This document shows positions 6,241 through 62,808 of a DNA stretch of 64,000 nucleotides, piece after piece. The notes beneath the pieces were generated by a model that saw nothing but the letters and a program-made list of their open reading frames with translations, was not told the DNA's origin and searched no databases. Every line of letters begins with the position of its first letter. Positions within the stretch are counted from its first letter, which is position 1. The stretch is from the NCBI GenBank assembly GCA_036630325.1, contig CP142736.1:868001-932000 (forward strand), read 5' to 3'. This stretch comes from Vairimorpha necatrix (lineage: Eukaryota). The position numbers and the translations under genes were made by a program.

Positions 6241-7699
6241 TTATTTGATAAATTACATAGTTATAAGTTTTTTGTTCAAATTGCAATTTTTATTCCAACT
6301 TTTGCATTTTTGATTGTCCAATTTTTCGAAAAAAATCAAACCCTTTTTAATGCCAATAAAAGCGAGAGCAACAGTCACGCCAGGTTGCAAATTTTTTCAT
6401 TTAAAAGATAAGTTTTGGGCATTTCATATGTTTTTTGCTTTATATTCACCATAGCTTAATAATATTGAAGAATTTTTTCTATTTAAATCGAGGTTTCGTG
6501 CTATACGATACAATAAAAAAGTAGAAAAGGATTTAGAACAAGTTTAAAAGACGAATTGGCTTCCGTGAATTGATTGTATACTTCCATCGTATAATGCTAG
6601 AAATGGTAAGGTGGAACATTTATTTATCTAATTGACTGGAATTGTATATTATTTTAAAAATATCACTATTGATGGTTCGTCATATGTCATTTTCTGGTTT
6701 TTTATAATTTTTTTTCAAAAATGGACTATAAAAATGCAACCTCTTGTAAATTACTTTAATTTTATTTAAATTTTTTTTCTTGCAAGTAAAAGGCAGGAAG
6801 AAACCTTAAATAGGGACCAGAGAGATTTGGGTGTGACCTCATCAACTGGTACTGTGAGATTCATACTCATTAAAAAACCTACACACAACGTGCCGGTGCA
6901 GCAAGCTCCGTCGTATCCATTGGACTTTGACTCCAGAAGAACACTTTCCATTTATATCTCATATCGCGTCCAGAGTGACCTCACGGCGATATACTTAACG
7001 GGCATGGTTATCTATAATCCGAGGAGAGACATCATTGTACTGACTCAAAGGTCCCTACAATCATCTGTATTGCACACACGGCTCCTTACACGACCACATC
7101 ACCAGCCCGGCGTTTTTATTGGGCTGCGTTGACCACCAGTCTCACACTAGTTTCGGCCACCGTGTTACAGAATCTTTGGATTTTTCTACGAGACCTTCTA
7201 TTGCCCTACTTCGTCTAGTCTCTTATTTAGCTCTATAATTCTACTCTAAAGTGCACCAGCCATGTGCTCCAACTAGGCCGTACCTATTAGATACTTTTGT
7301 ATCATTAAGTCACCACAAGGGTGATACTGTTTTTTTGCACTCGAGATGCGTTTCTACACTAGATACCGAACCCTTGTGCCTGACACACACATGTTTCATT
7401 ATATCAACTTAATGATTATCGTAAACATTTTCATCATCTGAGTTGTTCCGACGGCATCATAGAAAGTAGAATCAATTAGGGAGCCCCCGCGAATTGAACT
7501 TATCTATTGCTCAATGGAAGTATTGCCTTCTACTACTGGGCTAAGTGCACTTAACGTGGGTTTAATTATTATAAAATATTTAAAGATGGCCATGTCTCAA
7601 GATAGACACCGCCATTTGACATCTATAACACTTCCTACATCAGTAAAAAAGAATGCTTGGCAGTTTATGGGGAAATAAAAATTATATTTATTTCTTATA

Positions 7700-8875
7700 C
7701 GCTTATGTATTTAGGGCAAAAACGGACCATAAAGCTTTGGAAACTTAGCCAAGGAGAAATGGGCACTCGAAGAATACAATTATTGCCGGAAAGACTTAGT
7801 CGATGTAATTTCACTGTAAAATAAAAAAAGTTTGTCGAGATAGCACATGACGATTACGTGTCTCGCCTATATCAAAATGATGCTTAAGTTGTTAATATTA
7901 TTAAAGATACAAATTGTGAGATAAAAAAAGAATTTATTTTAGATTAACATGATTTAATTAGTAAGTTGTAAAGCATAAACAGCAGTTCAAGAATTTAAAA
8001 AAAATTATACGGGCCATATTATGGAGAAAATTAGCAAGGAAGAGCTGAAAAGTGAATAAGATGTAAAATGTACAATCCAAAAAGGAAGAAAGCGTTTTTG
8101 TTCGTCAAAGAATTTCATGCGAGAAAAAGGTAGCTATATACATTAGAGGAAAAATACTTCATTATTCACTAACAGGAGTTGAATACTTTGGTAAAAAGGG
8201 GTTGGGAAAAAGATAACCACGACAGATAGTCAAAAATTGTAGATTTTATAAAGGAAATAGACAAACAAATAACAATAAAGTAATTGATAATGTATTTTAT
8301 AAAAGAAAATCAAAGTAGTAAAGTAAGATCTGGGCCATAGAAAGTAAAATAAAAGTACATTATAACATACGCTTTCACTATTAGTCGAATGATCAAGTAG
8401 AAAGATTTAATTGAACTTAAGAAAATATTAACAGTCAGAAGGAAATCTAAATAATAAATCAAACTAATCGAAAATGTAGAGGCTTACAGTAATATTATTT
8501 ACTCAAAACTAGGAATGTCTCCAAATAAAGCTTATGAAAAATAAAACGAGACAAAAATAAAAGAGAAACAGTACACAGAAATCCTTATATTATATAAGAC
8601 AAACGAACAAAAAGAAGTTGAAGACGTATCTAGAAAACAATTAAGTATAATAAAGAATGAATTTACGGAGGCCAAAGAACAGCTCAAGTACAAAGACAGA
8701 GTACAAGTCATAGAACTGTTAGAAAAAAATACTTATATTGTGCTTTCAAAAGAAAAAAAAACTTAAGAGACACGCATCTAAACTCAAAAAAACTTGTTCA
8801 TTGCCAAAAAAAAAGGTTGTTGAATATTTAAACTTTTATTTCTATAACCTCTGAGATATCTTAATAAATAATTTA
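7700..8875 (+). pseudogene. Degenerate Ty3/gypsy RNaseH-integrase relic with probable short 3' LTR (8818-8875)
   Basis: Broken reading frames resemble the integrase at 37345-38154 (RCKMYNPKR at ~8058, SNDQVERFN at ~8385, KRHASKLK at ~8765). These are followed by TGTTGA...ATAACCTC...AATAAATAATTTA, which resembles the 52-bp LTR. 5' boundary uncertain. Confidence 0.6.
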
Positions 8876-8929: not shown

Positions 8930-11280
8930 AAAAGGCTATATACACATGCCATATAAGTTTTTTACAAAAAAACAAAGCGAAATTTTGACCAAAAACATAT
9001 TATTTCTATAATTTGCAATAATGAAAACGATTGTAATTTTTGACTTCTTCCGAAAATCGAAAAAAGAAGATTCCTTACATAAACCAGAAAAAAAGGAAAT
9101 TCATATTCCGCTGGTATTATGAGATATTTTTTCATTAAACTCCTTTGTATAACTTATCAGTGCAGCAAGCTCCCTTGTATATTATTTGGGCCTTAGGAGA
9201 ATAATTTTCCATCTATACCTCAAAACGATTCCAAAGGTACCTCATAGCAAATATACTCGACTTACAGAAAACATATCTAAAGGAAACTCAGCGTCGAGCT
9301 AGCTAAAGTTTAAACATCATTTACATCATACACGGCAAAACCCCCCAAGATCGCCTAACACGCATTTAGTGAACGCGTGACCATAGGGCTACCACAAATT
9401 TTGATCAAGTTTATTTAAAAATTTAGAGTATACAATACACGAAACCTTCTATTCTTCTATCTTGCCTAGTACTTTGATTATTTTAAGATTACCTCAAATA
9501 CACCCTTTTTGGGCTTGTTGGGCTGTACCCAGACGTATAATTTAAACTAGAAGTTTTCAAAAGGAGAATGCTCTTTTTGAATAAAAAAAAGCGTTCCTAC
9601 TCTTGGTGCCGGGCCTATAATGGCTGTACGCGACAGTTTTTTTTTAATTACCACATAATTTTGTGGACTTTTCAGCATTAGAATTGTTTCAACCGCATCG
9701 TATGGGGTATAAACTTTTTGGTACCAAAGATTTAAATTCTTAATTAACAAGCTTTTTTCGATAAATATACTACTGCTTCTGTTTTGACTTCTTCTGGCTT
9801 CTTTTTAACTACAATTCATAAAAGGTTTATAATATTTAAACGGCAGGAACAAGTATGTACAATAAAAACATTTTAGCATTAAAATAAACATCCAAAGATT
9901 CCCGTCGAATTCGAATGTTATATCATGCATTTTTTATTTTTTATTGTTTTGTGCACTGGTATTTTGGCTATGATAATTCTTAAACTAAAACAAAACATTA
10001 AATAAATAAAGAAATCAAAATGAATTGCTACATTATGATAATTTATCACTATTAAAATTTATTTTGAAACGGCTTTTTTGAAAATGTCATTAATATTAAA
10101 GCAGCTTTGCGATATAGCGTCTAGATTTTTAAACAAATTCTTTAAATGTTTAAAAGTTTCATCTAATGAATTATGTATTGCAAATTTATCTTTTTCCTCA
10201 AAATCATTTAGATATTGATGTTTAAAAAAAATCAAAAATATCTCAAACCTTTCAACTATTTGAAATGCTTTCTCAAAAATATATAACCTTGCAGAAAGAG
10301 ATGTATAAAAATCGATTATTTTTGAACTATCATATTTAAAAAGAAAATGTTTAGAAGTGCTTTGTCTTTTTATAGCGTAAAAAATACATTCGAAAAATTC
10401 GAACTGATCCTTAATATCGTTTGAGTAATCATCGCGAGGAATATTATTCACTGCTTTCTTAATAATATTGATATTATTAGTAAGAGATGCAAAAAACGGA
10501 TATAATTTATTACTTATCTTTAGTTTTTCAGAAGTATACTTTTTAATTTCATTTTCTTTCATATCTTTAACAAGATTATTTACAAAATGTTTCTTTTTAT
10601 CTTCGAATTCCCAAGTACTGATTTGATCGTATAATTTAAATTTTAAGTATTTGTAGTTCGATTCACTTTGAAAGTTATCACTTTCTAAAGTGGCTGTTAT
10701 ATTGTTCTTATCAATGTTTTGTGAATGTAAATTATCATTGGAAACTAAGGTAATAGATAAAGAACCAATGTTTTTAGTTTTTTTCATAGGATAACTTTGA
10801 TCAAAAAAAGCACTTTCGTCATTATTATTTAATTTTTTTTTCAAATTTAAGGCATCATTTTGCTTTTGAATATGTGTAAATGAATGTGTTTTGTTATTCG
10901 AAGATGTTGCTATAGAACATATTGCAAAAAATATATATTGTAACATTTAAGGGCTCTTTTTCATTTTTGTTGGGTCTACAAAAGTAGTATCAGAATATAT
11001 AATTTTAGAAGTATATTGAAAAGTTACTTACGTAATAATACGTTTTAAAATGAAAAAATTTCAACATTAAACGAATTCAACCAAAACAGGCAGAATCATC
11101 TTTGATTTTGATCTATTACATAAAATAACTACTAAATTTACTCGACAAATTCTAGAGAGAAGAGATAGGAGCAGATTTTAGCAGAAATTTGGGAATTTAA
11201 TTTACTCTTCGATTATCCAACCTCAGAATAAGTTATAACTAAGGTCCTACATCAATTTCTTTCTAATTTAATAGACATTT
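8930..11280. repeat. Segmental duplication unit B (gene copy 2 plus flanks)
   Basis: Collinear with 3860-6240. Boundaries approximate. Confidence 0.8.
10059..10946 (-). CDS. MLQY-family putative secreted protein, copy 2 (295 aa)
   Basis: Intact ORF with agCCCttaaATG start context; closely similar to copy 1 along its whole length. Confidence 0.87.
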   Translation of the reverse strand: MLQYIFFAICSIATSSNNKTHSFTHIQKQNDALNLKKKLNNNDESAFFDQSYPMKKTKNIGSLSITLVSNDNLHSQNIDKNNITATLESDNFQSESNYKYLKFKLYDQISTWEFEDKKKHFVNNLVKDMKENEIKKYTSEKLKISNKLYPFFASLTNNINIIKKAVNNIPRDDYSNDIKDQFEFFECIFYAIKRQSTSKHFLFKYDSSKIIDFYTSLSARLYIFEKAFQIVERFEIFLIFFKHQYLNDFEEKDKFAIHNSLDETFKHLKNLFKNLDAISQSCFNINDIFKKAVSK

Positions 11281-28848: not shown

Positions 28849-29733
28849 TTAACTTTTTGTGTTAGTTTCCCATAAAAGCTCTACGACTTTATTAGAATTT
28901 AAGGTTATCTTTCGTAGATTCGAAAACAACCTTTTAACTTTACAGTGTATCGTTTCAAAAGCGCATTGTATTGCATTTTTTTCGATTTCATTATAAATAA
29001 TAATATATTTATATTCGAAAAATGCCTTAAATATCTCAAATCTATCGACTATATTGAATTCTTCCTTAAAAGTATTCATTCTGATAGGCAAATTGCCATA
29101 AAATTCCATTATTTTGGAACTATTATATTTATAACTTAAATTTTTGGCAGTAGTAAAGATTTTCAAATAACCGAAAATCTCTTCAAAAAAATCTAATTGG
29201 TCTTTTAAATCATCTGAATACTCATCATAAGTGATCTTATTTAATGCTATTTTAATTATAGTAAGCAATTGATTAAAATTTTTATAAAACACTGCAAACT
29301 CACGTTTAACGTATTTTTTTGATTTTTCAAACATTCTTATTTCATTTTCATCCATACGATTATTTTTGTGCCATTTAAGATTGTCATCATGATCTTCAAT
29401 ATTCCATATATTTATTTGATCACACAATTTCTGTTTCAATGATTTATAATCAATAATATTTAGTAGACCGTTGACGCCCAAAGTGATTATTCTTTTTTTT
29501 CTGTTAACATATTGTAGGTATGAACTATTATATTCTGAAGTACTAGACGAAGGATCTGCTTTTTTATTTTTTATTGAAGGGGTTATCAGTACATAAAAAT
29601 CTGCACAATCAGTATCTAATTTTTTGTTATTTTTTGAATTATCTGGATAATAGAGAACCTTAGGGAAAAAATCAGGTTCTTTATTGTAGTTTTTCACCTC
29701 AGAACAAACTACTAAAAAAAGATATTGTAACAT
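28849..29733 (-). CDS. MLQY-family putative secreted protein, copy 5 (294 aa)
   Basis: Intact ORF; aCCCCCatatATG start; MLQYLFLVVCSE; motifs DEYSDDLKDQLDFF and IVDRFEIF. Confidence 0.87.
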   Translation of the reverse strand: MLQYLFLVVCSEVKNYNKEPDFFPKVLYYPDNSKNNKKLDTDCADFYVLITPSIKNKKADPSSSTSEYNSSYLQYVNRKKRIITLGVNGLLNIIDYKSLKQKLCDQINIWNIEDHDDNLKWHKNNRMDENEIRMFEKSKKYVKREFAVFYKNFNQLLTIIKIALNKITYDEYSDDLKDQLDFFEEIFGYLKIFTTAKNLSYKYNSSKIMEFYGNLPIRMNTFKEEFNIVDRFEIFKAFFEYKYIIIYNEIEKNAIQCAFETIHCKVKRLFSNLRKITLNSNKVVELLWETNTKS

Positions 29734-30415
29734 ATATGGGGGTTTTTAATATTTAATTTAAATAAAATATAAAAACATGCACCAATTTAATAATCATAAG
29801 ACCACAATAAAAACAGTGAATTTATATATACAATCCAAAAATTTACAAATAAAAAGTACATCAAAACTTTTTAAAAAAATTGTTGTTTTCATCTGTCAAA
29901 ATAAGATTGCGTATTTAGCTAATAATTATAATCAAAAATAGAATGTCTGGATTATCTAAATAAAACCTCAATAGATGTTTTAAAACATAATAATAATTGT
30001 ACTTATAAACTAATATTAACGATTTTACATAATGAATATTTGATGTACATTACTACATCACATAGACAGATGTCACCCCCATCATCTGTCACTTATGTCC
30101 GAAGACATGTCAACCATTTCAAGTGGCCTTTCAAGATGAAACACACAAACAAACAAACTTAAGTGGGATGGTCGTTACTACATTCGTAAGTACGCCAAAG
30201 TTTGTGTTTAGTGTTGACGGCCAAAGAGAACTTACAGCCCCCGCATTTGAGGCGCTACGATTTTTTTTTCAAACCCCAAAAATAAAGTGTAAAAAAGGAG
30301 GAGCAAAGAAGAAACGAAAATTACTAGGCACTTATGATATTAAAAATACTAAATAAAAACATAAAATAATTTTAAATTATATTTTAAACACATATATTTA
30401 ATTAAAAATTTTATT

Positions 30416-35899: not shown

Positions 35900-36810
35900 T
35901 ATGAAGCAAAAAATCTTTAATGTGGATTTTTGAAACTTATAGCTAATAGAAATTGGCATATGTTACTTAGTAGGTTTTTTAGCTAAAATTGGTTTGTTAT
36001 TTATTATGACTGGCTGCCATGGCTTACATATAGCTAAGCAATATTTTTAAATCTTATTATAGTTATAAAATGAATTTTTAATAATGATAAATTTATTCAA
36101 AGGATTTTAGTATTTTTATTCATAAGATCTTCATTTCAAACAAAAATCGACTAATATGTTATATGTGTCAAACTTTTACAAGAATTTAGATTCAATTTAA
36201 TGGTATGAAGATCATAATAGCAAAGCACATAATAATAAATTATTCCGTCAATTTTCGAGGGAAATTGTTTTGACAATTCAAATCTAATCATAAACAATTG
36301 ATCTTTAAATCATCCAAATTCATCATGTTCATATGAATTTTTGGTTTTTTGAAAAAATAATGTGATCGTCTACAGATCTGTATAGTTGTGAAAATCTACA
36401 TTATATAGCAGATTTTGAATTCTAAAACCTATATGGCATTTTTTTTAAAATAAAAATTTCTTTATATTAATATTTTGGTTGTCATTTTCTATTTCCTAGA
36501 TATTTTTGCACTCTCATTTTTTTTCGATTATTAATAATCTATAGATTTTGTAGCTAATTTCATTTTATATAATTAGTTTGAGGTAGAATAAATGAAGCTT
36601 ATAAGAAAATGTCATTTGAACAAGATGTACAACTATATTATCCTTTTCAATTTTTTTAAGGAGCCAAAAGGTGTTCATGACAATCCCAATGAATGATATA
36701 TATTTGTCCTTTTTTATTTCTCTCTAGTATAGATATTTGAGGATTTTTTTTTAATTTGTTGAGTTTGATCTCAGAACAGATTATCATAAATAAAAATGCA
36801 ATATATATGA
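35900..36810 (-). pseudogene. Decayed MLQY-family copy
   Basis: Minus strand reads FLFMIICSEIK (cf. YLFLVVCSEVK) at ~36790 and HDEFG*FKDQL (cf. YDEYSDDLKDQL) at ~36310, at about the expected spacing; multiple stops. Confidence 0.55.
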
Positions 36811-37286
36811 TCAAAAATTTGTAATTTTTTTTGATGAAGATGAATGGATTAAAAAACATGTGCAAATAAATATCAGAAGATATATATTAACACAACTTAA
36901 AATTTTAAGATGGGAAGTATATGATTCTATGCGTATGGCTGATGGTAAAACAAAAAAATAAAGGGGAAGAAGTTACAGAAAAAAAAATATATACAGATGT
37001 ATAGAAACATTTGAAAGGTTATAATGTCATACACTGAATTGATCTTAGTCTCATTACAAAAAAAACGAAAATGCACAAATAGATAACAATATAATATTAA
37101 TATTTTCTATGGTAAAAAATCTAAATAAGAAATAAATGACACTCATAAAAAGCGACAGTTTTAATGATTTAATATATGAAATTAAATATTATTTGACATT
37201 ATAAAAACAACCTTTTCAGATTAAGATAAAATTTTTTGTCACATATTTAAGTTATATTTTTGTTTTTGCATGATTTTTTTCCCACT

Positions 37287-40200
37287 TAAACATTTATTCT
37301 AGAATAGGGGTTATAAATAATTATTATTTCACTCAACATCCCCCTCATTCAAAATAATCCTCTACTATTAGCTTAAGTTGCGAGCCATGTCGCTTTATAG
37401 TTTTATTATGGACCTTAACGTTATAAGAATTATTTCCTAAAATATTAATAATTATACCTTGCGATTCAAATCTAGGTTTTCCCTTTGTTAAATCGGTTTC
37501 TCTTCTAATTATAACACTATCTCCCTCTTTAAAAATAAATTCAGCTCCTCTTTTCTTCTGTCGTTGGTTGAATTTTATGATTTCTTCGAATTGTCTTAGT
37601 TTAATCTCCTGAGCTCTCTTAGGATTACATGCTTCATCTGGCGACATGCCAAGAACGGAGTGTCTAACATTATTGTATACATCTAGTACACGCTTAGTTT
37701 TTGTCTTCAAATTTCCAAAACTATTATCTTTATATATACCTTCCTGTATTGTCCTATTAAATCTTTCTATTCTTCCGTTTGATTGGTGATGAAAAGGGGA
37801 AATATAATGAATTTGAACATTATTTCTCGTTGCCCATTGTTTTACCTCAATACTCAAATTTTCTTTTGACTGATCAAGAATTAGTATTTTAATCTTTATG
37901 TCATTATAAACTTCATCAAAAAATTTCACTAGCTTATTACTCTCTCTAGTAGTAATGACTTTAGCCCACGCTTTCCTTGTAAAATAGTCGATCGCCGTAA
38001 TTTTATAGCTTCCATTGATTGGTCCTATAATATCGGCAGCTACCTTTTCGCCAGGTTCGTATGCTGTCACAAATATGAATTTTTTTCCTCTTTGTGGATT
38101 GTACATCTTACATCTTAGACATTTATTAATTTCCGTTTTTACCATATGCGACATATCTTTCCAATGATATTTTTCCTTAATTCATTTTCAATAACTTTTG
38201 ATCCTCTGTGAACTAACTCTATATGTTTATTCCTTATGATAGACCTTTTTTCTTCTTCGCTAAATTCAATCATATTTATTTCATCCGTATTTAACTCATT
38301 AAGATAAGATCTTGACAAACAATCGACGTGAGGAATATCTGTCCCCTTTTTGTACTCGATCGTGTAATTATACTCACTCAATTTATCAAGCCACCTTTGT
38401 ATACGTAACGATTTTATTTCGCCTTTATTTAGGACCTCTAGAGCTTTGGGATCAGTTATTACTTTAGACTCATTTCCATATAAAAAATATCTAAAATTTT
38501 CCATTCCCCATAGGACACCCAAGCATTCTTTCTCGCTGATACTGTAATTTCTTTCCGCTGGAACCAATCTTCTAGAAGCGTACGCGATTGGGTACACATG
38601 CCCTTCATTTTCTTGTGACAAGATCGCTCCCAGACCAGAGTCACATGCATCCGTTTCTAATATGTAAGGTTTACTAAAATCTGGCTGTTTAAGCACACTG
38701 CTCGACAATACAATTTTCTTTAACGTGTTAAAAGCAGCATCCTGTTCCTTCCCCCAATTAAATTGAATATCATTTTTTGTAAGATCATATAAACATCCTC
38801 CGATTTTTGAACAATTAGGAATAAATTTTTTATAATAATTAATAAGTCCCAGAAATTCTTGCAGTGATTTTTTATTGATTGGTCTTTTCATATTGTTAAT
38901 TGCTTGGTCCCGTGTAATTTTTGGCTTAATTTAGTTATATGCTATTAAATGTCCCAAAAGGTAAGTTCTTTAACCTTATATATTGTTTTATCCTCATTAA
39001 TACCTAAGTTATAGCTTTTAAGCTTTGTTATGATCTTCTCATAATTAAAATCACGTTATTCCTCGTTTTCTCCAAAAACCAGTATGTCATCGCCATACAC
39101 GAAGCAACTTTTCCCCATTTTTTCTTGTAAAACATCATCTATAAATCTTTGAAAAATTGCCGGAGCATTTTTAAACCCCATTGGCATAACGTTCCATTCT
39201 ATAATAGGTGCTTAAATCTGAAAGCGGTCTTATATCTATCTTTTCCCGCTAATTCTATACAAAAAAATGCATCTTTTAAATCCAATTTACTAAAATATTT
39301 TTTCCCACGAAGCCCGTATAAAAGCTTATCAATGTGTGGTAAGGAGTAATTATCTAGCTCTACCAATTTGTTTAACGAAACTAAATTTGTAGTAACTCTT
39401 ATAGAACCATCTGGTTTAATTACTGGTCTTAAATTATTCAACCACGTTGATTTTGATTTTCTTATGTAATTTTTACTTAGTAGTTCTTTGATAGATTTTT
39501 CCACTCCTTCTTCTAACTTTTTTGGTAGTGTATAGACCTTTTCAACAATTTTTTCTCCTTTTATCGTATTTATTTCACAAATTCTATTGCTAGACACCCT
39601 TTTCAATATTTCTTGTAATGTCTTTTTTCCTACAAGTATTTTAAATTTTTCCACCTTAGGGAATATAAAAAATTTAGAACGATAACTTTTACCACCATAA
39701 GAGAAATCTAATATCACATATTCTGTAATCCCGAATCTTTCTTCTAAACATGTTAAAAAATATATTTCCTCTGTACTTCTATAAATTTTTAAAGTTAGTT
39801 CAGAAGCAGCCTTTTTACTCATAAAATTATAGTAAGAACCCGAGTCAAAAGTTACATTAATTTTTTCATTATAAACATATATTAAATCTTCTTTATTGTT
39901 AATAAAGTTTGCATCCAACATTTCGCCTTCTTGGTGGATCTCATTTATCCTTTTATACTGTAGTTGTTTACCATCAGTTCTTTTCTTCTTCGCAAAACAG
40001 TCTTTAGCAATATGCCCATCCTTGTGGCAAAAATAACATGAATATCTTTTGTTGATGTTATTGGAGGCAGGTTGTCTTATTTTTGTTATATCGTTATTTT
40101 CCTTTTCCATTTCATCAATTATTTCAAGGAATTCTTTATTAATTTCATATTGCCCTGTTAATACCATTTTTATAGCCTTATATCTTGGTAGAATTCCATT

Positions 40201-40616
40201 TCTTATTATCTTCCTTTTACCCGTATTTCTGATATTTTCCTTTAGACATTTCTTTTCTACATCTTTGATAAATTCCACAATACTTTGGTTTTCTTTTTGT
40301 TTTAAAGTATATAATTCGTACAATCCAGTACCGCAGTCAAATTCCGTTTCTGCCAACTCTTTCCACATTTCAAATGTTAATGAACATTTCCGTTTCTCCT
40401 TCATTAACATACTATGCCAATCTAGTATCTCAATGTTGGCTTTATGAATAAAATAATCAATTTTTTCCTCATTTGATAATTTATTAAAACTGGAAAGTAA
40501 AGAAGCTCTTTGTAGCTCCTGCAAGATATTTCACTACTAATCTCTGTTTTCATATTCTCCACCATAAACATTTATTCTAGAATAGGGGCTATAAATAATT
40601 ATTATTTCACTCAACA
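37287..40616 (-). mobile_element. Ty3/gypsy LTR retrotransposon with 52-bp LTRs, frameshifted (3330 bp)
   Basis: Direct repeats 37287-37338 and 40565-40616 (51/52 identical); 5-bp TSD CCACT (37282-37286, 40617-40621); PBS TGGTGGAGAAT abuts the 5' LTR; PPT GAGGGGGA abuts the 3' LTR. Confidence 0.93.
37345..40571 (-). pseudogene. Gag-PR-RT-RNaseH-IN polyprotein broken into several frames
   Basis: ORF 39199..40524 has CYFCHKDGHIAKDC, FDSGS protease and SKLDLKDAF. YGDD lies at ~39085-39100, RNase H LETDACDSGLGA in 38139..38891, and integrase ADIIGP / HHQSNGRIERFN in 37345..38154. Confidence 0.9.
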
Positions 40617-42115
40617 CCACTAAATTTAATAACAATATTGGTATCATAATTTGAATTATTTTTGTGAGTTTCAAACAAATCTTTGCTTTTCTGGTCACAT
40701 GAGGTTGAGTATTGAACTAAAAACGGTTTTCTTTTTTAAAAAATTATAAATATTTTATAGATTAGAATTGATTATCTGGCCTAAAATAATTTATATTTTA
40801 GTACTGATTACGTGGAACCATTTTATTTCGAGCAATAACATTGTTTATTTAAAATCTATAATAGACTGTATTATCTACATGTCATTTTTGCCTTTTTTTA
40901 GAAAATATTTGTTTTATTTTTAGCTGAAACTAATTTCAAAGAAAGAATGGAACAAAAAAAACACAATTAAAAAACAAGACCAAAAAGAAAACAAAGGACT
41001 TATAGATAACATCATTTGAATTAGTAATAAATAAAGATTAGAGAGGTTTTTACTACCAAGAAGCTTACTCTGGTTCCACAAAACACTAATTCAAATTAAT
41101 ATTAAGTTTTCATATTTAATACTTGTGTTTTTTCTCTTCTTTAAATTAAAATTTCAGATATAAATGATAAAAATTTTTTAAATTCAAAATACAGGAATAA
41201 CAAAATAAAAAATGTCAACGAACATGTGTTGTAAACATTCTACAAATAATGCCAAACGTATTTTTAGATTTATAATTTAAGTAAAGTATTATTGTGCTTT
41301 GATTTCTTACATCTATGTAATTTGAAATACCCACAGTTAATGTTTGTTCAAAAAGCCATTTAAAGAGTACATGTTATTCATAATTTTTCAGTTATGATTG
41401 TAGTGTTATGATTACATGTATCAAACACCACTTAAAGCTTCTCTATTAATTGTACAAACGGCTTCAGAAAAAGAGCCGAATAAAAAATATAAATTTTGGA
41501 AAGTATGAAATGTTATTATATACGACTTAGAATGCTGTATTTTCGATAAAAATTCCATCACGTGTTTTCTGTAAGATGTTTGGTTATTAAGCCTGTATTT
41601 TTCTTTAAAAAAGCTTATTTTTTACAAAAAAATAAAAGATAAAAATATATTGAGATTTCTCAAGTTTATTAGCACATAGATTATCTTGTTGCAAGGAATT
41701 TTGCTCCTCAAATTATGGATATTGCAATATTGATTATGTTTTCAAGCTTCGTCATACTTTCATTCTCTTAAAATGCGTTATTTTTTAACTGTTACACTCT
41801 TAACTAGTTAGTTACAATTTTATACAATTCTTTATCAACAGCATCTTCCTGATATATTCTATCTTTGATCTAAGCTATAAAAAAACGGATTAGATACATA
41901 AAACTGAAACAAATATTAGCTGTTATATGAAAAAAAAACCTTTATATAAATAGACATTAAGGTATTATACGAATTTACCAGTGTTAAACATTATTTATGA
42001 CATAAATTTAAAATTTTCAATTTTATTGACATACATTTTATAACAGCTTTTGAAAGGTCTATTTAAAATTAGAGCCAACTTTAAATATTTATATATTAAA
42101 AAAAATCTCCTCCCC

Positions 42116-49453: not shown

Positions 49454-49581
49454 TTATGCATAAAGTTCTTTAGATTTTTTACTAGTGTAATTAATGCATA
49501 AATTTATGCACATGTTAAATTATGCATAAAGTTCTTTAGATTTTTTACTAGTGTAATTAATGCATAAATTTATGCACATGT
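49454..49581. repeat. Two-copy 66-bp tandem repeat containing the palindrome TGCATAAATTTATGCA
   Basis: Units start at 49454 and 49520 and match over ~62 bp; a partial third copy (ttatgcacatgtt) lies at ~49617. Confidence 0.9.
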
Positions 49582-49908
49582 ATTAGATATTTTGCAAATA
49601 TTTATATTTCTTGATTTTATGCACATGTTTAAGATATTTTTAATACGTCAATCAAATAAATTAAAATTATATTAAAATTTGAAGTATTATAAAACGAGAG
49701 TACTTGCTGTATAAAACCAATATACATTGCAGGAATTATATAGAAATTTGAAATATCTTGAAAATAAAGTAAATACTGTATAAATTTAAAAAATAAGTTA
49801 ATTTATTTATAGTCAACTGTAAAAATGTATAAATATCATGGAGAAATTCATAAATGTACTATTTTCAAGTAGTACAATTTATACTTTATTTCCTTTTTTA
49901 ACCCCAAA

Positions 49909-59665: not shown

Positions 59666-62600
59666 TGTTATAATCAGTAATAATATTAAACCCTAATTAT
59701 GTTAAGCACTTATATGGAGGCGATACCTAAAGAAGAGTTCACAAGAGAGGACTGTGGCCAAGTGGTCAGAAAGATGTTACAGGAGTTAGAGCGTATATTG
59801 TATGAATTGGATTTGAGAGATGTGGATAGAGAGAAATGGAAGAGTGAGCTGTTCAAGTTGGCTTCGATGGATTTAAAAGATTTTATTGTGAGAAATATCA
59901 AAAAGGAAGAAAATATTGAAGGAATAAGGAAGAAGCTATTGTTAAGGATTAAGGAAGTAGAGGAGGAAGAAAAGATATATGAGGAAATGAGAAAAATTAT
60001 TTCTAGGACTATAAATGAAGAAATTAGTAGAGAACAACCAAGACAAAAATCGAGAGTACCGAGATGCTTCTATTGTGATAGACAAGGGCATAGGGTGTTT
60101 GAATGCAGACTGAAGATTAATAGAGATAATTATTATAAAAAGACTAACAAGGATAACAGTTGCAAAATGGAAGTAGGTAGTGAATCAGAGTCAAGTCAGG
60201 AGCGAGATTTTAGAAGATCAAAAAGAGGACTTAGAGTCAAATTTGAGAAAAATCAAAAAGAATATGCCGTTAAAGAGGAGAGTAAGAGAATCAGATTAAA
60301 TTTAGATAAGTATGCTAAGAGTTTTGGAGAGGTTTTTAAGTTAGGAAAAGAGGAGATAAAATATTGTAAACTGGAAAAATGTAAAATTAATACTGAAGCG
60401 GGTATGAAGGTATTTAAAAAGGGACAAATGGTTCCGCAGGCGTTGATAAAAGATACAGAGCTACATCTAGAAGATTTATTAAAAAGGAAAGTGATAAGAG
60501 AGTCAAATTCAAGTTGGAGGAATCCTATAAGGTCAATCAGAAAGCCAAATGGTGAGATAAGACTGGTTAGTAATTTGATGGCATTGAACGATATTGTAGA
60601 AAAGGACGAGTATAGATTGTCTAACATAAGAGATGTTGTAAGAGCTACACAAGGTGCAAAATATATGACGGTTTTCGACTTAAAAGAGGCCTTCTATAGT
60701 ATTGAGATAGAGGAGGAGGATAAACATAAGACGGCGTTTGATTTTAATGGCAAGGTTTATGAATGGAACTCTATGGTTATGGGATATAAGAATAGCCCGC
60801 AGATATTGCAGAGAATTATGGATAGGATTTTTAGAGATATGAAAGGCAAAGGAGTAGAGGTGTATATGGACGATATTGTGTTGTACAGCCGAACGATAGG
60901 AGAACACGAGCAATTAGTGAAAAGGGTATTAAATAGACTGAAGGAAAACAATATGAAGCTGAATGCAAATAAAGTTCAGTTTTGTCAACGGGAAGTTAAA
61001 TTATTGGGAGTCACTTTAAATGGAGAAGATATAATACCGTCAGAGATAAAGAAAAATGAAGCCCTAGAGTTTCCGATACCAACATGCGTGTCAGATGTAA
61101 GAAGATTTTTAGGAATGACGGGTTGGTTCAGAGATTTTATTAAGAATTACGCTGGATTGACAGTTAGGTTGACAGATAGTTTAAAAGGGAAGAATGATAA
61201 TTGGAAGTGGACGGATGATATGAAAAACGAGTTTAATAATTTAAAAGAAGTATTGAAAGGCCTAGGAAAGCTGCAAATAGCAGACTATGATAAAGAATTT
61301 TTGTTGAGGACTGACGCTAGTAATGTAGGCATGGGCGCAGTACTGTTACAGAAAAATAATCAAGGAGAATGGGTGCCAGTACAGTGGGCGTCTAAGAAGT
61401 TTACCGTTACGGAAGTTAATTATGGTATATCAGAAAAAGAAATGTACGCAGTTTTTTGGGGCGTTAAAAAGTTTGAATATGAATTAAGAGGTAGGAAATT
61501 TAGAATAGAAACTGATCATAAAGCGTTGGGCGAAATAAGAAACAAGCCCGACTTCAAGAATGCTAGAATTAATAGATGGGTCGAGAAGATTCAGGAATTT
61601 GATTTCGTGATAGAATATAGAACTCCAGAAAATATGGTCGTAGCCGATGCGCTAAGTAGGGTATATACAAAAGAAAAAGATGCAAAGAATAAGAGAAATG
61701 AAACACGCCGTGATAGACAAAAAGAAGGGAAAAGAAATAAGCATGTAAAAATTGTAGAAGGTAAAGAATACTGGGTATTTGATAGTGGTAGAGAAGGCGA
61801 GATGCCTTTGGAACAAGACAGAGAGAGATTAATAATGGATTGTCATGTAAATTTGAGCCACAGAAGCAGAACAACGGTATATTATGAGTTGAGGAAACAG
61901 TATTATTGGCCAGGAATTAAGGATCAGATCGAAAAGGTCCTTAAGAATTGCGAGACTTGTCAGATTTTTAATAGAAAAACGAGTGGCGGTACTGATTTAG
62001 TGAACACGACAAGATATTTAGAGAAGGTTGGCTTAGATTTAATAGAATTTAGGGATGAGAAAGCGTTTATTGTTTTGGCAGTTGATTACTTTACAAGGAG
62101 ATTATGGGGCAGAGTATTGAAGAGCAAGCACGCATCTGGAATTGCCGAATTTATCAAGGATTTGTGTAAACAGGGTAGAAAACCAGAGGAAATCATTACG
62201 GATAATGGTAAAGAGTTTTGCAACGAAAAAGTTACCGAGCTATGTAGAAATTTGGATATTAGTCATAGAAAGGTCAGCGTTGAGTCGCACAGAAGTAATG
62301 GAAGAGTAGAAAGAGTTATTAGAACTGTAAGAGATAGTATTTTAAAGAGCCAAAAAGAGAAATTCGAGAACAAGGTTTATGAAGCTATTGAGAAATATAA
62401 TTTAAGTTTTCATGCTGGTATTAAGTGCACGCCAGTAGAAGCTTTAACCGATAATACAGGAAATGTTAGTATGGAGAATAGTCCAGAGGGAAAGTATGCG
62501 CAACAGTTTAAAAGTTGGTTTAGAGAAAAGTTCAAAAGGAACCAGATAGTTAGGGTTGCCAAGAATGAGAATTTAAAGGGATGTAGTAAGTATAGTAAGG

Positions 62601-62808
62601 GTCGATTTTTAGACATGGGAAGAGTGATTGAGCTATGTCCAGGGGATTCATATATAGTGAGATTAGAGAATGGAAGGTTGGTGAAAAAAAGGCATTATGA
62701 TCTTAAGGGTGTAGGGGATTTAAAGTATGTTGAAGGAGACTAACCGTCTGGAGGGGGGATGTTATAATCAGTAATAATATTAAACCCTAATTATGTTAAG
62801 CACTTATA
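59666..62808 (+). mobile_element. Intact Ty3/gypsy LTR retrotransposon with 49-bp LTRs (3143 bp)
   Basis: Identical 49-bp direct repeats 59666-59714 and 62760-62808; 5-bp TSD ACTTA (59661-59665, 62809-62813); PBS TGGAGGCG at 59715; PPT GGAGGGGGGA just before 62760. Confidence 0.95.
59699..62743 (+). CDS. Single-ORF Gag-RT-RNaseH-integrase polyprotein (1014 aa), no evident protease
   Basis: CFYCDRQGHRVFEC knuckle; RT VFDLKEAF, MGYKNSP, YMDD; RNase H LRTDAS, ETDHKAL; integrase HVNLSH...CETC, VGLDL, ITDNGKEF, SNGRVERV. Confidence 0.95.
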   Translation: MLSTYMEAIPKEEFTREDCGQVVRKMLQELERILYELDLRDVDREKWKSELFKLASMDLKDFIVRNIKKEENIEGIRKKLLLRIKEVEEEEKIYEEMRKIISRTINEEISREQPRQKSRVPRCFYCDRQGHRVFECRLKINRDNYYKKTNKDNSCKMEVGSESESSQERDFRRSKRGLRVKFEKNQKEYAVKEESKRIRLNLDKYAKSFGEVFKLGKEEIKYCKLEKCKINTEAGMKVFKKGQMVPQALIKDTELHLEDLLKRKVIRESNSSWRNPIRSIRKPNGEIRLVSNLMALNDIVEKDEYRLSNIRDVVRATQGAKYMTVFDLKEAFYSIEIEEEDKHKTAFDFNGKVYEWNSMVMGYKNSPQILQRIMDRIFRDMKGKGVEVYMDDIVLYSRTIGEHEQLVKRVLNRLKENNMKLNANKVQFCQREVKLLGVTLNGEDIIPSEIKKNEALEFPIPTCVSDVRRFLGMTGWFRDFIKNYAGLTVRLTDSLKGKNDNWKWTDDMKNEFNNLKEVLKGLGKLQIADYDKEFLLRTDASNVGMGAVLLQKNNQGEWVPVQWASKKFTVTEVNYGISEKEMYAVFWGVKKFEYELRGRKFRIETDHKALGEIRNKPDFKNARINRWVEKIQEFDFVIEYRTPENMVVADALSRVYTKEKDAKNKRNETRRDRQKEGKRNKHVKIVEGKEYWVFDSGREGEMPLEQDRERLIMDCHVNLSHRSRTTVYYELRKQYYWPGIKDQIEKVLKNCETCQIFNRKTSGGTDLVNTTRYLEKVGLDLIEFRDEKAFIVLAVDYFTRRLWGRVLKSKHASGIAEFIKDLCKQGRKPEEIITDNGKEFCNEKVTELCRNLDISHRKVSVESHRSNGRVERVIRTVRDSILKSQKEKFENKVYEAIEKYNLSFHAGIKCTPVEALTDNTGNVSMENSPEGKYAQQFKSWFREKFKRNQIVRVAKNENLKGCSKYSKGRFLDMGRVIELCPGDSYIVRLENGRLVKKRHYDLKGVGDLKYVEGD

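Follow-up and report, generated by a model that had tools for sequence, protein, structure and literature searches.

We describe here a retrotransposon of the microsporidian Vairimorpha necatrix that has extremely short long terminal repeats (LTRs). It lies in a stretch of 64,000 nucleotides (assembly GCA_036630325.1, contig CP142736.1, positions 868,001 to 932,000 of the forward strand; hereafter, the window), where it occupies positions 37287-40616 on the minus strand. This copy, which we refer to as element 1, is a Ty3/gypsy LTR retrotransposon with a textbook layout and LTRs of 52 bp. LTRs usually measure 100 bp or more. A second retrotransposon of the window, element 2, has LTRs of 49 bp, and we use the term micro-LTR for repeats of this size. 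The features of both elements, together with other features of the window, are collected in Table 1.

Table 1. Positions of retroelement features and of other features in the window; open pieces are the stretches of the element 1 frame that remain open.
Feature	Position	Strand	Description
5′ LTR, element 1	40565..40616	-	52 bp, TGTTGAG...ATGTTTA; TATA-like run, CCCC, AATAAATG
3′ LTR, element 1	37287..37338	-	52 bp; identical at 51/52 positions to the 5′ LTR, with A instead of G before CCCC
Target-site duplication AGTGG, upstream copy	40617..40621	-	read from the sequence
Target-site duplication AGTGG, downstream copy	37282..37286	-	read from the sequence
Putative primer-binding site, element 1	40554..40564	-	TGGTGGAGAAT; no spacer after the 5′ LTR
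Polypurine tract, element 1	37339..37346	-	GAGGGGGA; abuts the 3′ LTR and overlaps the pol stop TGA (37345-37347)
Open piece 1	39199..40530	-	gag with zinc knuckle CYFCHKDGHIAKDC, putative protease (FDSGS ... ILVGKK), reverse transcriptase N-terminus with VTTNLVSLN
Reverse transcriptase core, second frame	38957..39223	-	YGDD for YVDD; in-frame TAA 39058-39056
Open piece 2	38139..38930	-	reverse transcriptase C-terminus and RNase H; RT_RNaseH_2 E 1.4e-34, RT_RNaseH E 3.1e-33
Open piece 3	37345..38181	-	integrase (end of H2C2 finger, core, C-terminus); rve_3 E 7e-9, rve E 1.3e-5, Integrase_H2C2 E 9.8e-4
Element 2	59666..62808	+	identical 49-bp LTRs 59666-59714 and 62760-62808; target-site duplication ACTTA; primer-binding site TGGAGGCGATACC; polypurine tract GGAGGGGGGA
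Third element, 5′-truncated	7576..8875	+	RNase H-integrase remnant 7576-8760, 40% identical to protein P0110; TGTTGAA... from 8818, after a purine run
Element with 270-bp LTRs	20841..23651	+	LTRs ~270 bp with 1 difference; ends TGTCATG...CATGTCA; target-site duplication GATAC; polypurine-like tract GGGGGGCAGAC
581-aa integrase ORF	16404..18149	+	within 16084-18705
Near-palindromic 35-nt repeats	16084..16118, 16153..16187, 18671..18705		flank the 581-aa integrase ORF
Tandem repeat	49454..49632		three copies of ~66 nt, rich in ATGCAT palindromes (TTATGCATAAA...)
Duplicated segment	4135..5281, 9204..10329		~5.05-kb spacing; 78-89% identity in blocks
Paralogous ORFs of the duplicated segment	5011..5985, 10059..10946	-	no Pfam match
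ORFs with related starts	19264..20268, 28849..29745

The 52-nt string TGTTGAGTGAAATAATAATTATTTATAGCCCCTATTCTAGAATAAATGTTTA occurs twice on the minus strand of the window, exactly at 40616-40565 and, at 37338-37287, with one mismatch; among 100 dinucleotide shuffles there was no match. Immediately inside the pair lie a putative primer-binding site (PBS) and a polypurine tract (PPT), and immediately outside lies a target-site duplication (TSD) of 5 bp, AGTGG. Allowing up to 14 mismatches, we find no further or solo copies of the 52-bp LTR in the 64-kb window, and allowing up to 13, no solo copies of the 49-bp LTR of element 2. An AT-rich window does favor short chance repeats, and nothing else speaks for the idea that the pair is a chance match or an assembly artefact, to which we give practically no credence. 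The repeats sit exactly at PBS, PPT and TSD, element 1 is recovered in contigs of independent sequencing runs, and it is these contigs together with the shuffles that refute it.

The interior of element 1 corresponds to one frame that encodes gag, possibly a protease, reverse transcriptase (RT), RNase H and integrase; it starts in the LTR or at the LTR/PBS junction, and it stops within the PPT. The intact frame opens ATG TTT ATG GTG GAG AAT, such that the first ATG is within the LTR, overlapping the AATAAA, and the second one straddles the junction. With the start codons at these positions the PBS is itself translated, ATG GTG GAG AAT being read as M-V-E-N. And since the coding frame fills the space from the LTR to the PPT, there is no room for a longer LTR.

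Pfam finds RT, RNase H and integrase in this order along the minus strand, as in Ty3/gypsy elements. In the first open piece the RT model RVT_1 has an E-value of 3.4e-7, and that piece (443 aa) is 98% identical to P0109, a database protein named 'endonuclease [Vairimorpha necatrix]'. The zinc knuckle CYFCHKDGHIAKDC can be read in element 1, and zf-CCHC reaches E 0.022 in P0109. The whole region is collinear with four relatives by tblastn. For the protease, the hits to Pfam models are all below threshold (RVP_2 E 0.012, Peptidase_A2B E 0.042, Asp_protease_2 E 0.099), and for the relative P0111 gag-asp_proteas (E 5.3e-5) is likewise under the cut-off.

The original prediction, which was made from the DNA letters alone, had described this LTR pair with its CCCC and AATAAATG, a PBS directly behind the 5′ LTR, a pol stop codon overlapping the PPT, and a change of a usual RT motif in both elements, and all of that is borne out; the TSD is an addition to it. 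It had also credited element 1 with a protease. There, the motif FDSGS is present, but the Pfam models give it no support above threshold.

The copy of element 1 in the window is dead. Its frame changes near 40530, 39200, 38950 and 38180, there is at least one in-frame stop, and the RT reads YGDD in place of YVDD. P0109, on the other hand, reads through the first three of these four frame breaks and has YVDD. We compared positions 36800-41100 with contigs from four public runs, all four being contig sets, whose depth figures we do not take as copy numbers. In run X1, the main contig is 3226 nt long, and its depth figure is 24.5, where the flanks have 0.6-2.6. It has 1-nt insertions at 40528, 39199, 38955 and 38169, precisely where the frame breaks four times, and it differs from the window at 39058 and 39054 (the TAA stop and a neighboring codon) and at 39092 and 39093 (the YGDD site). 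Contigs of run X2 agree at the sites that they cover, which are 38955 and all four substitutions, and three of them part from the window exactly at 40565, the border between LTR and PBS. With these sites unbroken in the X1 and X2 contigs, the window copy is one that has decayed, in a multi-copy family that is open in its common form.

Could the 52-bp repeats then be what is left of longer LTRs, after a deletion accident in one decayed copy? The copy is clearly decayed, by four frameshifts, a stop codon and YGDD. But the TSD adjoins the repeats directly, and with a frame that reaches from the LTR into the PPT, no part is lacking. In the majority contig of X1, the same single short LTR lies between the end of pol and the start of gag, and intact relatives carry LTRs of 39-58 bp. 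We regard a deletion remnant as very improbable.

Element 2 gives a view of such an element in an intact state. It is 3143 bp long, with one frame open for 1017 codons, and it has one ATG within the LTR and one at the LTR/PBS junction. Its pol is 24-40% identical to that of element 1. It is apparently an autonomous gag-RT-RNase H-integrase element. Between zinc knuckle and RT, neither element 2 (59714-62743) nor the relatives in its clade (proteins P0001-P0039) have a Pfam protease domain or a D[ST]G motif, unlike the Nematocida proteins and the element 1 clade, in which there is a putative protease.

A protein search with element 2 returned 108 hits. Twelve hits derived from Logan are full-length (976-1019 aa, 44-70% identity), and their contigs exceed the open reading frame (ORF) by only 27-261 nt, a figure that is an upper bound and not an LTR measurement; LTRs of ordinary size would not fit there. 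Among named proteins, the nearest to both elements come from V. necatrix, Nosema granulosis, Enteropsectra and Nematocida.

For a number of the relatives the LTRs themselves can be read. The metagenome locus L003, with a pol 50% identical to that of element 2, has LTRs of 39 bp (one mismatch) of the form TGTTG...GACA, the TSD TTATA, the PBS TGGCACCCAGTC, and an ATG within the LTR. Locus L082, on a contig binned in a bacterial metagenome-assembled genome (MAG), has an intact ORF of 1095 aa between identical 58-bp LTRs; its PBS, TGGTGGAGAACA, shares the first 10 bases with that of element 1, and so does the MVEN start. From the same MAG comes L081, whose 5′ end is off the contig, with a 3′ LTR of ~38 bp following GGAGGAGGGGA. 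The block AATAAATAACCCTTAA is common to L003 and L082, which fall in different clades (see below). Two further loci, L001 and L002, have no terminal repeat and are apparently rearranged. In most of the distant metagenome loci L007-L080, a blastn comparison of upstream and downstream flanks finds no LTR pair; these are fragments or unrelated large ORFs, and we omitted them from the mapping of LTR lengths.

We also observe that two bacterial MAGs, G001 and G002, labelled Clostridium sp. and Turicibacter sp. (loci L081-L113), contain pol-profile matches (53 and 17, respectively), which lie on contigs that are short and AT-rich. It looks as if repeat contigs of a eukaryote, probably a microsporidian, had been binned into the bacterial genomes.

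We built two quick IQ-TREE trees, one of 47 rows under LG+C20 with posterior mean site frequencies (PMSF) and one of 38 rows under LG+G4, using as support the SH-like approximate likelihood ratio test (SH-aLRT). Both trees recover one microsporidian group (SH-aLRT 96 and 100) in three parts. One is the element 1 clade (support 100), with element 1 of the window, P0109, P0110, P0111 and L082. Another is the element 2 clade (support 99), with element 2 of the window, L003, L081, and proteins of Enteropsectra and N. granulosis. The third part is a pair of Nematocida proteins. Elsewhere in the tree, L005 groups with L004 and L006, and L091 groups with L095.

The RT carries a mark of the same relationship. 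Where other elements have CVDYRxLN, element 1 reads VTTNLVSLN and element 2 LVSNLMALN. The changed motif can be written R-x-x-x-N-[LFY]-x-x-L-N. Of the 39 closest relatives of element 2 (P0001-P0039), a pattern search matched 30, and all 30 show the N-for-D change, as do P0109-P0111; D is kept in Nematocida and in the outgroups. In an alignment of 22 rows, N287, L291 and N292 are invariant. The change thus marks the element 1 and element 2 clades, for which we use the name N-motif clade.

How are the LTR lengths distributed on these trees? All four members with both ends (52, 49, 39 and 58 bp) have an LTR of at most 60 bp, and their start codon lies in the LTR or where it meets the PBS. Because every member with both ends readable has a micro-LTR, short LTRs are not the accident of a single copy. 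Outside the group, LTR lengths are 171 bp (L004), 182 bp (L006), ~176 bp (L095), at least 126 bp (L093) and at least 139 bp (L099), together with 57 bp in L005, which has a normal CVDY motif and a Pfam-supported protease, and 75 bp in L091, with AACCC directly before the ATG. Other lineages, too, have shortened their LTRs or kept them short. With these qualifications, the data largely support the micro-LTR as a heritable, clade-level trait of both sister clades.

The original prediction had already suggested a clade-level trait, and an RT phylogeny as the way to examine it. As we have just seen, the 39-58 bp range in four out of four members agrees with it, and the 57 and 75 bp outside the clade, as well as an element in the window with 270-bp LTRs, limit it. 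It had also taken the 52-bp repeats as a second, independent family. The family is real, but its independence is relative, given that the two families are relatives of each other at the sister level.

What do these short repeats contain? We observe an order that begins with a TGTTRNR end and goes on with an A/T-rich stretch, with purine-CCC(C)-pyrimidine, and with the first ATG. The distance from CCC to the first ATG is 5-18 nt in five of six micro-LTRs (element 1, element 2, L003, L081 and L082, but not L005). Of the five micro-LTRs of both clades, three (element 2, L003, L082) have an A[AT]TAAA immediately ahead of the CCC, and in element 1 and L081 an AATAAA comes after the CCCC. Host genes are built in a similar way: by eye, 8 of 11 host ORFs examined in the window have a CCC within 15 nt before the first ATG. 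In Nosema ceranae, a CCC motif is reported no more than 15 bp from the start, and a peak of TATA near -27 (PMC2685015), and in V. necatrix 77% of the genes for functionally characterized proteins are reported to carry CCC or GGG as a motif in the 30 bp upstream of their start (PMC10759460). The 5′ untranslated regions described for Encephalitozoon cuniculi are shorter than 7 nt, and AAUAAA is usually ~20 nt before the cleavage site (PMC2803860). A survey of animal LTRs gives TGTTRNR...YNYAACA as the consensus of LTR ends, and an R region as short as 10-11 bp in Sire and in mouse mammary tumor virus (MMTV) (PMC3601003).

From this layout we propose that a micro-LTR would consist of the integrase ends, the start-proximal CCC promoter of the host and a poly(A) signal. 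The repeat would open with the 5′ end recognized by integrase, TGTTRNR, followed by the A/T-rich, TATA-like stretch, by the microsporidian CCC core-promoter motif and, 5-18 nt further, by the start codon; the 3′ end, ..ACA or, in the V. necatrix window elements, ..TA, would close it. As microsporidian mRNAs start a few nt ahead of the ATG, the final 10-20 nt of the 5′ LTR would be where transcription begins, and R and U5 together would measure no more than ~20 nt. Poly(A) cleavage would take place at or just past the end of the 3′ LTR, and minus-strand strong-stop DNA would transfer on an R of ~10-20 nt. Such an R plus U5 would lie within the range given for MMTV and Sire (10-11 bp; PMC3601003). 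In L003, L082 and element 2, the A[AT]TAAA stands before the CCC and hence upstream of the predicted start site, so that the 5′ end of the RNA would lack it; and it stands ~20 nt before the LTR end, so that cleavage would fall at the end of the 3′ LTR. In element 1, cleavage would occur a few bases into the flanking DNA.

A different mechanism would do without a promoter or an R inside the LTR. Copying would go through read-through transcripts, or through tandem or one-LTR circles, and the repeat would only provide the ends for integrase. The R that we propose is indeed very short, transcriptional overrun has been reported in microsporidia (PMC2803860), and contigs of two runs, X1 and X3, join position 40589 to 37312 (that is, they go back 3278), the main X1 contig running from the end of pol through one LTR into gag. 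We rejected this joint as evidence for a circle or a tandem, because a k-mer assembly that collapses two identical LTRs yields an identical contig, and such a collapse, of the two 52-bp LTRs, is most likely what it is; 27 letters fit both sides. In addition, the CCC-to-ATG layout is conserved, with host-like spacing, in five of six micro-LTRs, and PBS and PPT are exactly where the standard mechanism needs them. Copying without a promoter in the LTR therefore strikes us as improbable, if less so than a deletion remnant.

The reading that we hold with considerable confidence is that element 1 is a complete, though dead, insertion whose LTRs are truly 52 bp long, a compressed U3-R-U5, and that this compression is heritable in both sister clades and has been enabled by minimal host promoters. 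Several observations weigh against it. We infer the borders of U3, R and U5 rather than take them from transcript ends, and in element 1 the AATAAA is only 6 nt from the LTR end, a looser fit that puts cleavage in flanking DNA. The strings to be compared with host tRNAs are TGGTGGAGAA.. for element 1, where TGG opens at the first base past the LTR, and TGGAGGCGATACC for element 2; ARAGORN finds no tRNA genes in the 64-kb window, and so no tRNA there that matches a PBS. The LTRs of both window elements open with TG and close with TA, against the TG...CA rule; CA is present at the 3′ LTR end of the relatives L003, L082 and L005, and the TA terminus is a departure from the usual dinucleotide in an architecture that is intact.

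Other points against it concern descent. The claim on LTR length for the clade has four elements with both ends. One of them, L082, has no TSD, possibly because the contig is a chimaeric assembly, and the LTR length of L081 comes from a single copy. Within the group, the LTR lengths come from the element 1 and element 2 clades, the Nematocida branch being its third part. The trees contain many rows of odd composition, have SH-aLRT as their only support, and leave the order of the three subclades unsettled. Short LTRs are found outside the clade, 57 bp (L005) and 75 bp (L091), both with longer-LTR sisters (~171-182 bp), so the trait may be host-driven and may have arisen more than once. And the element with 270-bp LTRs is in the window itself, an indication that the host may matter as much as descent.

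These last points lead to the alternative that we take most seriously, although we still find it unlikely. Micro-LTRs may be a convergence imposed by the host, in which ~30 nt suffice for promoter and poly(A) signal, and elements 1 and 2 reached ~50 bp independently. The LTRs of the two elements cannot be aligned past TGTT and the CCC block, and the CCC-to-ATG layout is one that host genes use too. Outside the clade, we have just seen LTRs of 57 and 75 bp in elements sister to others with 171 and 182 bp (L005) and ~176 bp (L091). On the other hand, L004-L006 and L091/L095 may or may not come from microsporidia. A single ancestral change is also the simplest account of four short LTRs (39-58 bp) in four readable members of both sister clades, and the block AATAAATAACCCTTAA occurs across the two clades, in L003 and in L082. 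Moreover, an element with 270-bp LTRs persists in the V. necatrix genome, which means that the host does not force shrinkage.

How do micro-LTRs compare with what has been described before? In the yeast element Ty1, of the copia superfamily and with LTRs of ~330 bp, gag starts within the 5′ LTR and the PBS is in the coding sequence; the likeness to element 1 is a start codon upstream of the PBS, so that the PBS is translated. The LTR of the Bombyx element Mag is 77 bp, and LTR finders usually have a minimum of 100 bp. In the literature that we searched, the shortest LTRs are those of the rice relatives' elements FRetro64 (Ty1/copia, 76 and 90 bp) and FRetro129 (85 bp), which were found only when the minimum of an LTR finder was lowered to 50 bp (PMC3281118). 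Their LTRs are likewise very short, with ends of the TG..CA type, and are flanked by a 5-bp TSD. FRetro129 is a non-autonomous SMART element that encodes nothing, while here we have autonomous Ty3/gypsy elements with 39-58 bp; the LTRs of both FRetro elements, which are of the plant copia superfamily (PMC3281118), are ~1.5 to 2 times longer than micro-LTRs.

The LTRs of animal Metaviridae and retroviruses, as surveyed by Benachenhou et al. 2013 (PMC3601003), are similar in that the TGTTRNR 5′ end is found in all micro-LTRs, and YNYAACA in L082 and L005; the window elements, unlike those LTRs with their CA, end in TA. An AATAAA, a TATA-like stretch and a short R are also described in that survey, and in micro-LTRs motifs of this kind make up nearly the whole LTR.

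Elements 1 and 2 belong to the microsporidia-specific, single-polyprotein Ty3/gypsy groups that Parisot et al. 2014 (PMC4202319) described. Like the elements here, those groups have a single gag-pol polyprotein and hosts that include relatives of Nosema and Vairimorpha, and a microsporidian regulatory signal was noted in the putative promoter of one such element. The main text of that article gives no LTR lengths, PBS, PPT or placement of the start codon, and it does not mention LTRs of 39-58 bp, an ORF that starts in the LTR, or the N-for-D motif. Our literature search found no LTR lengths stated for microsporidian elements, and no LTR below 60 bp described in microsporidia or elsewhere, within a scope that did not extend to the supplements of Parisot et al., to Xu et al. 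2006 on the Nosema bombycis element Nbr, or to Repbase. A prior description of micro-LTRs may exist.

A stronger claim can be formulated, which we offer tentatively, as its chances seem to us a little short of even. At 39-58 bp, micro-LTRs may be shorter than the working LTRs of every other autonomous LTR retrotransposon. They would combine two integrase ends, one core-promoter motif, one poly(A) signal, an R of ~10-20 nt and an almost absent U5, with the start codon in the LTR and a translated PBS. The state would be ancestral to a whole microsporidian Ty3/gypsy clade, which would still be active, given the identical LTRs and the intact ORF of element 2, and standard LTR finders would miss its members as LTR elements.

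The window contains other retroelement sequences. A 5′-truncated third element has an RNase H-integrase remnant followed, at 8818, by a stretch that the original prediction took as a relic of a third micro-LTR of ~58 bp. The stretch does follow the remnant and does begin with TGTTGAA; it has no partner copy, and it may be a 3′ micro-LTR with an undefined end.

The element with LTRs of ~270 bp shows that LTRs of normal length exist in the V. necatrix genome. It has an ORF of 613 aa that starts ~100 nt into the 5′ LTR and codes for gag, for an aspartic protease and for the zinc finger of an integrase, and there is integrase-core similarity just downstream of this ORF. We find in it no RT or RNase H, and no TGG primer site after the LTR; it may be non-autonomous or self-priming. 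Another ORF, of 581 aa, has only an integrase core and an H2C2 finger, without RT, and a CCC precedes its ATG by 12 nt. Near-palindromic 35-nt repeats flank this ORF, and the whole could be a DNA transposon of the integrase type, or else an integrase gene that was captured.

The window has a G+C content of 23-32%, and besides the retroelements it includes a serpin and a farnesyl-diphosphate synthase with V. necatrix paralogues that are 76% and 73% identical. A tandem repeat lies ~280 nt upstream of the start of the farnesyl-diphosphate synthase. There is also a duplicated segment with paralogous ORFs, and the starts of two other ORFs are related to those; these ORFs may be an expanded gene family.

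If our reading is true, the lower bound on a working LTR would be much lower, with ~40-50 bp for integrase recognition, transcription start, polyadenylation and both strand transfers, and the minimal R and U5 would become directly testable. There are also practical consequences. In the annotation of microsporidian genomes, elements with micro-LTRs would be called LTR-less or unclassified, and the dating of insertions by LTR divergence would have almost no sites to work with. For the biology of the family, it would be a case in which the extreme compaction of the host's promoters has been adopted by a mobile element.

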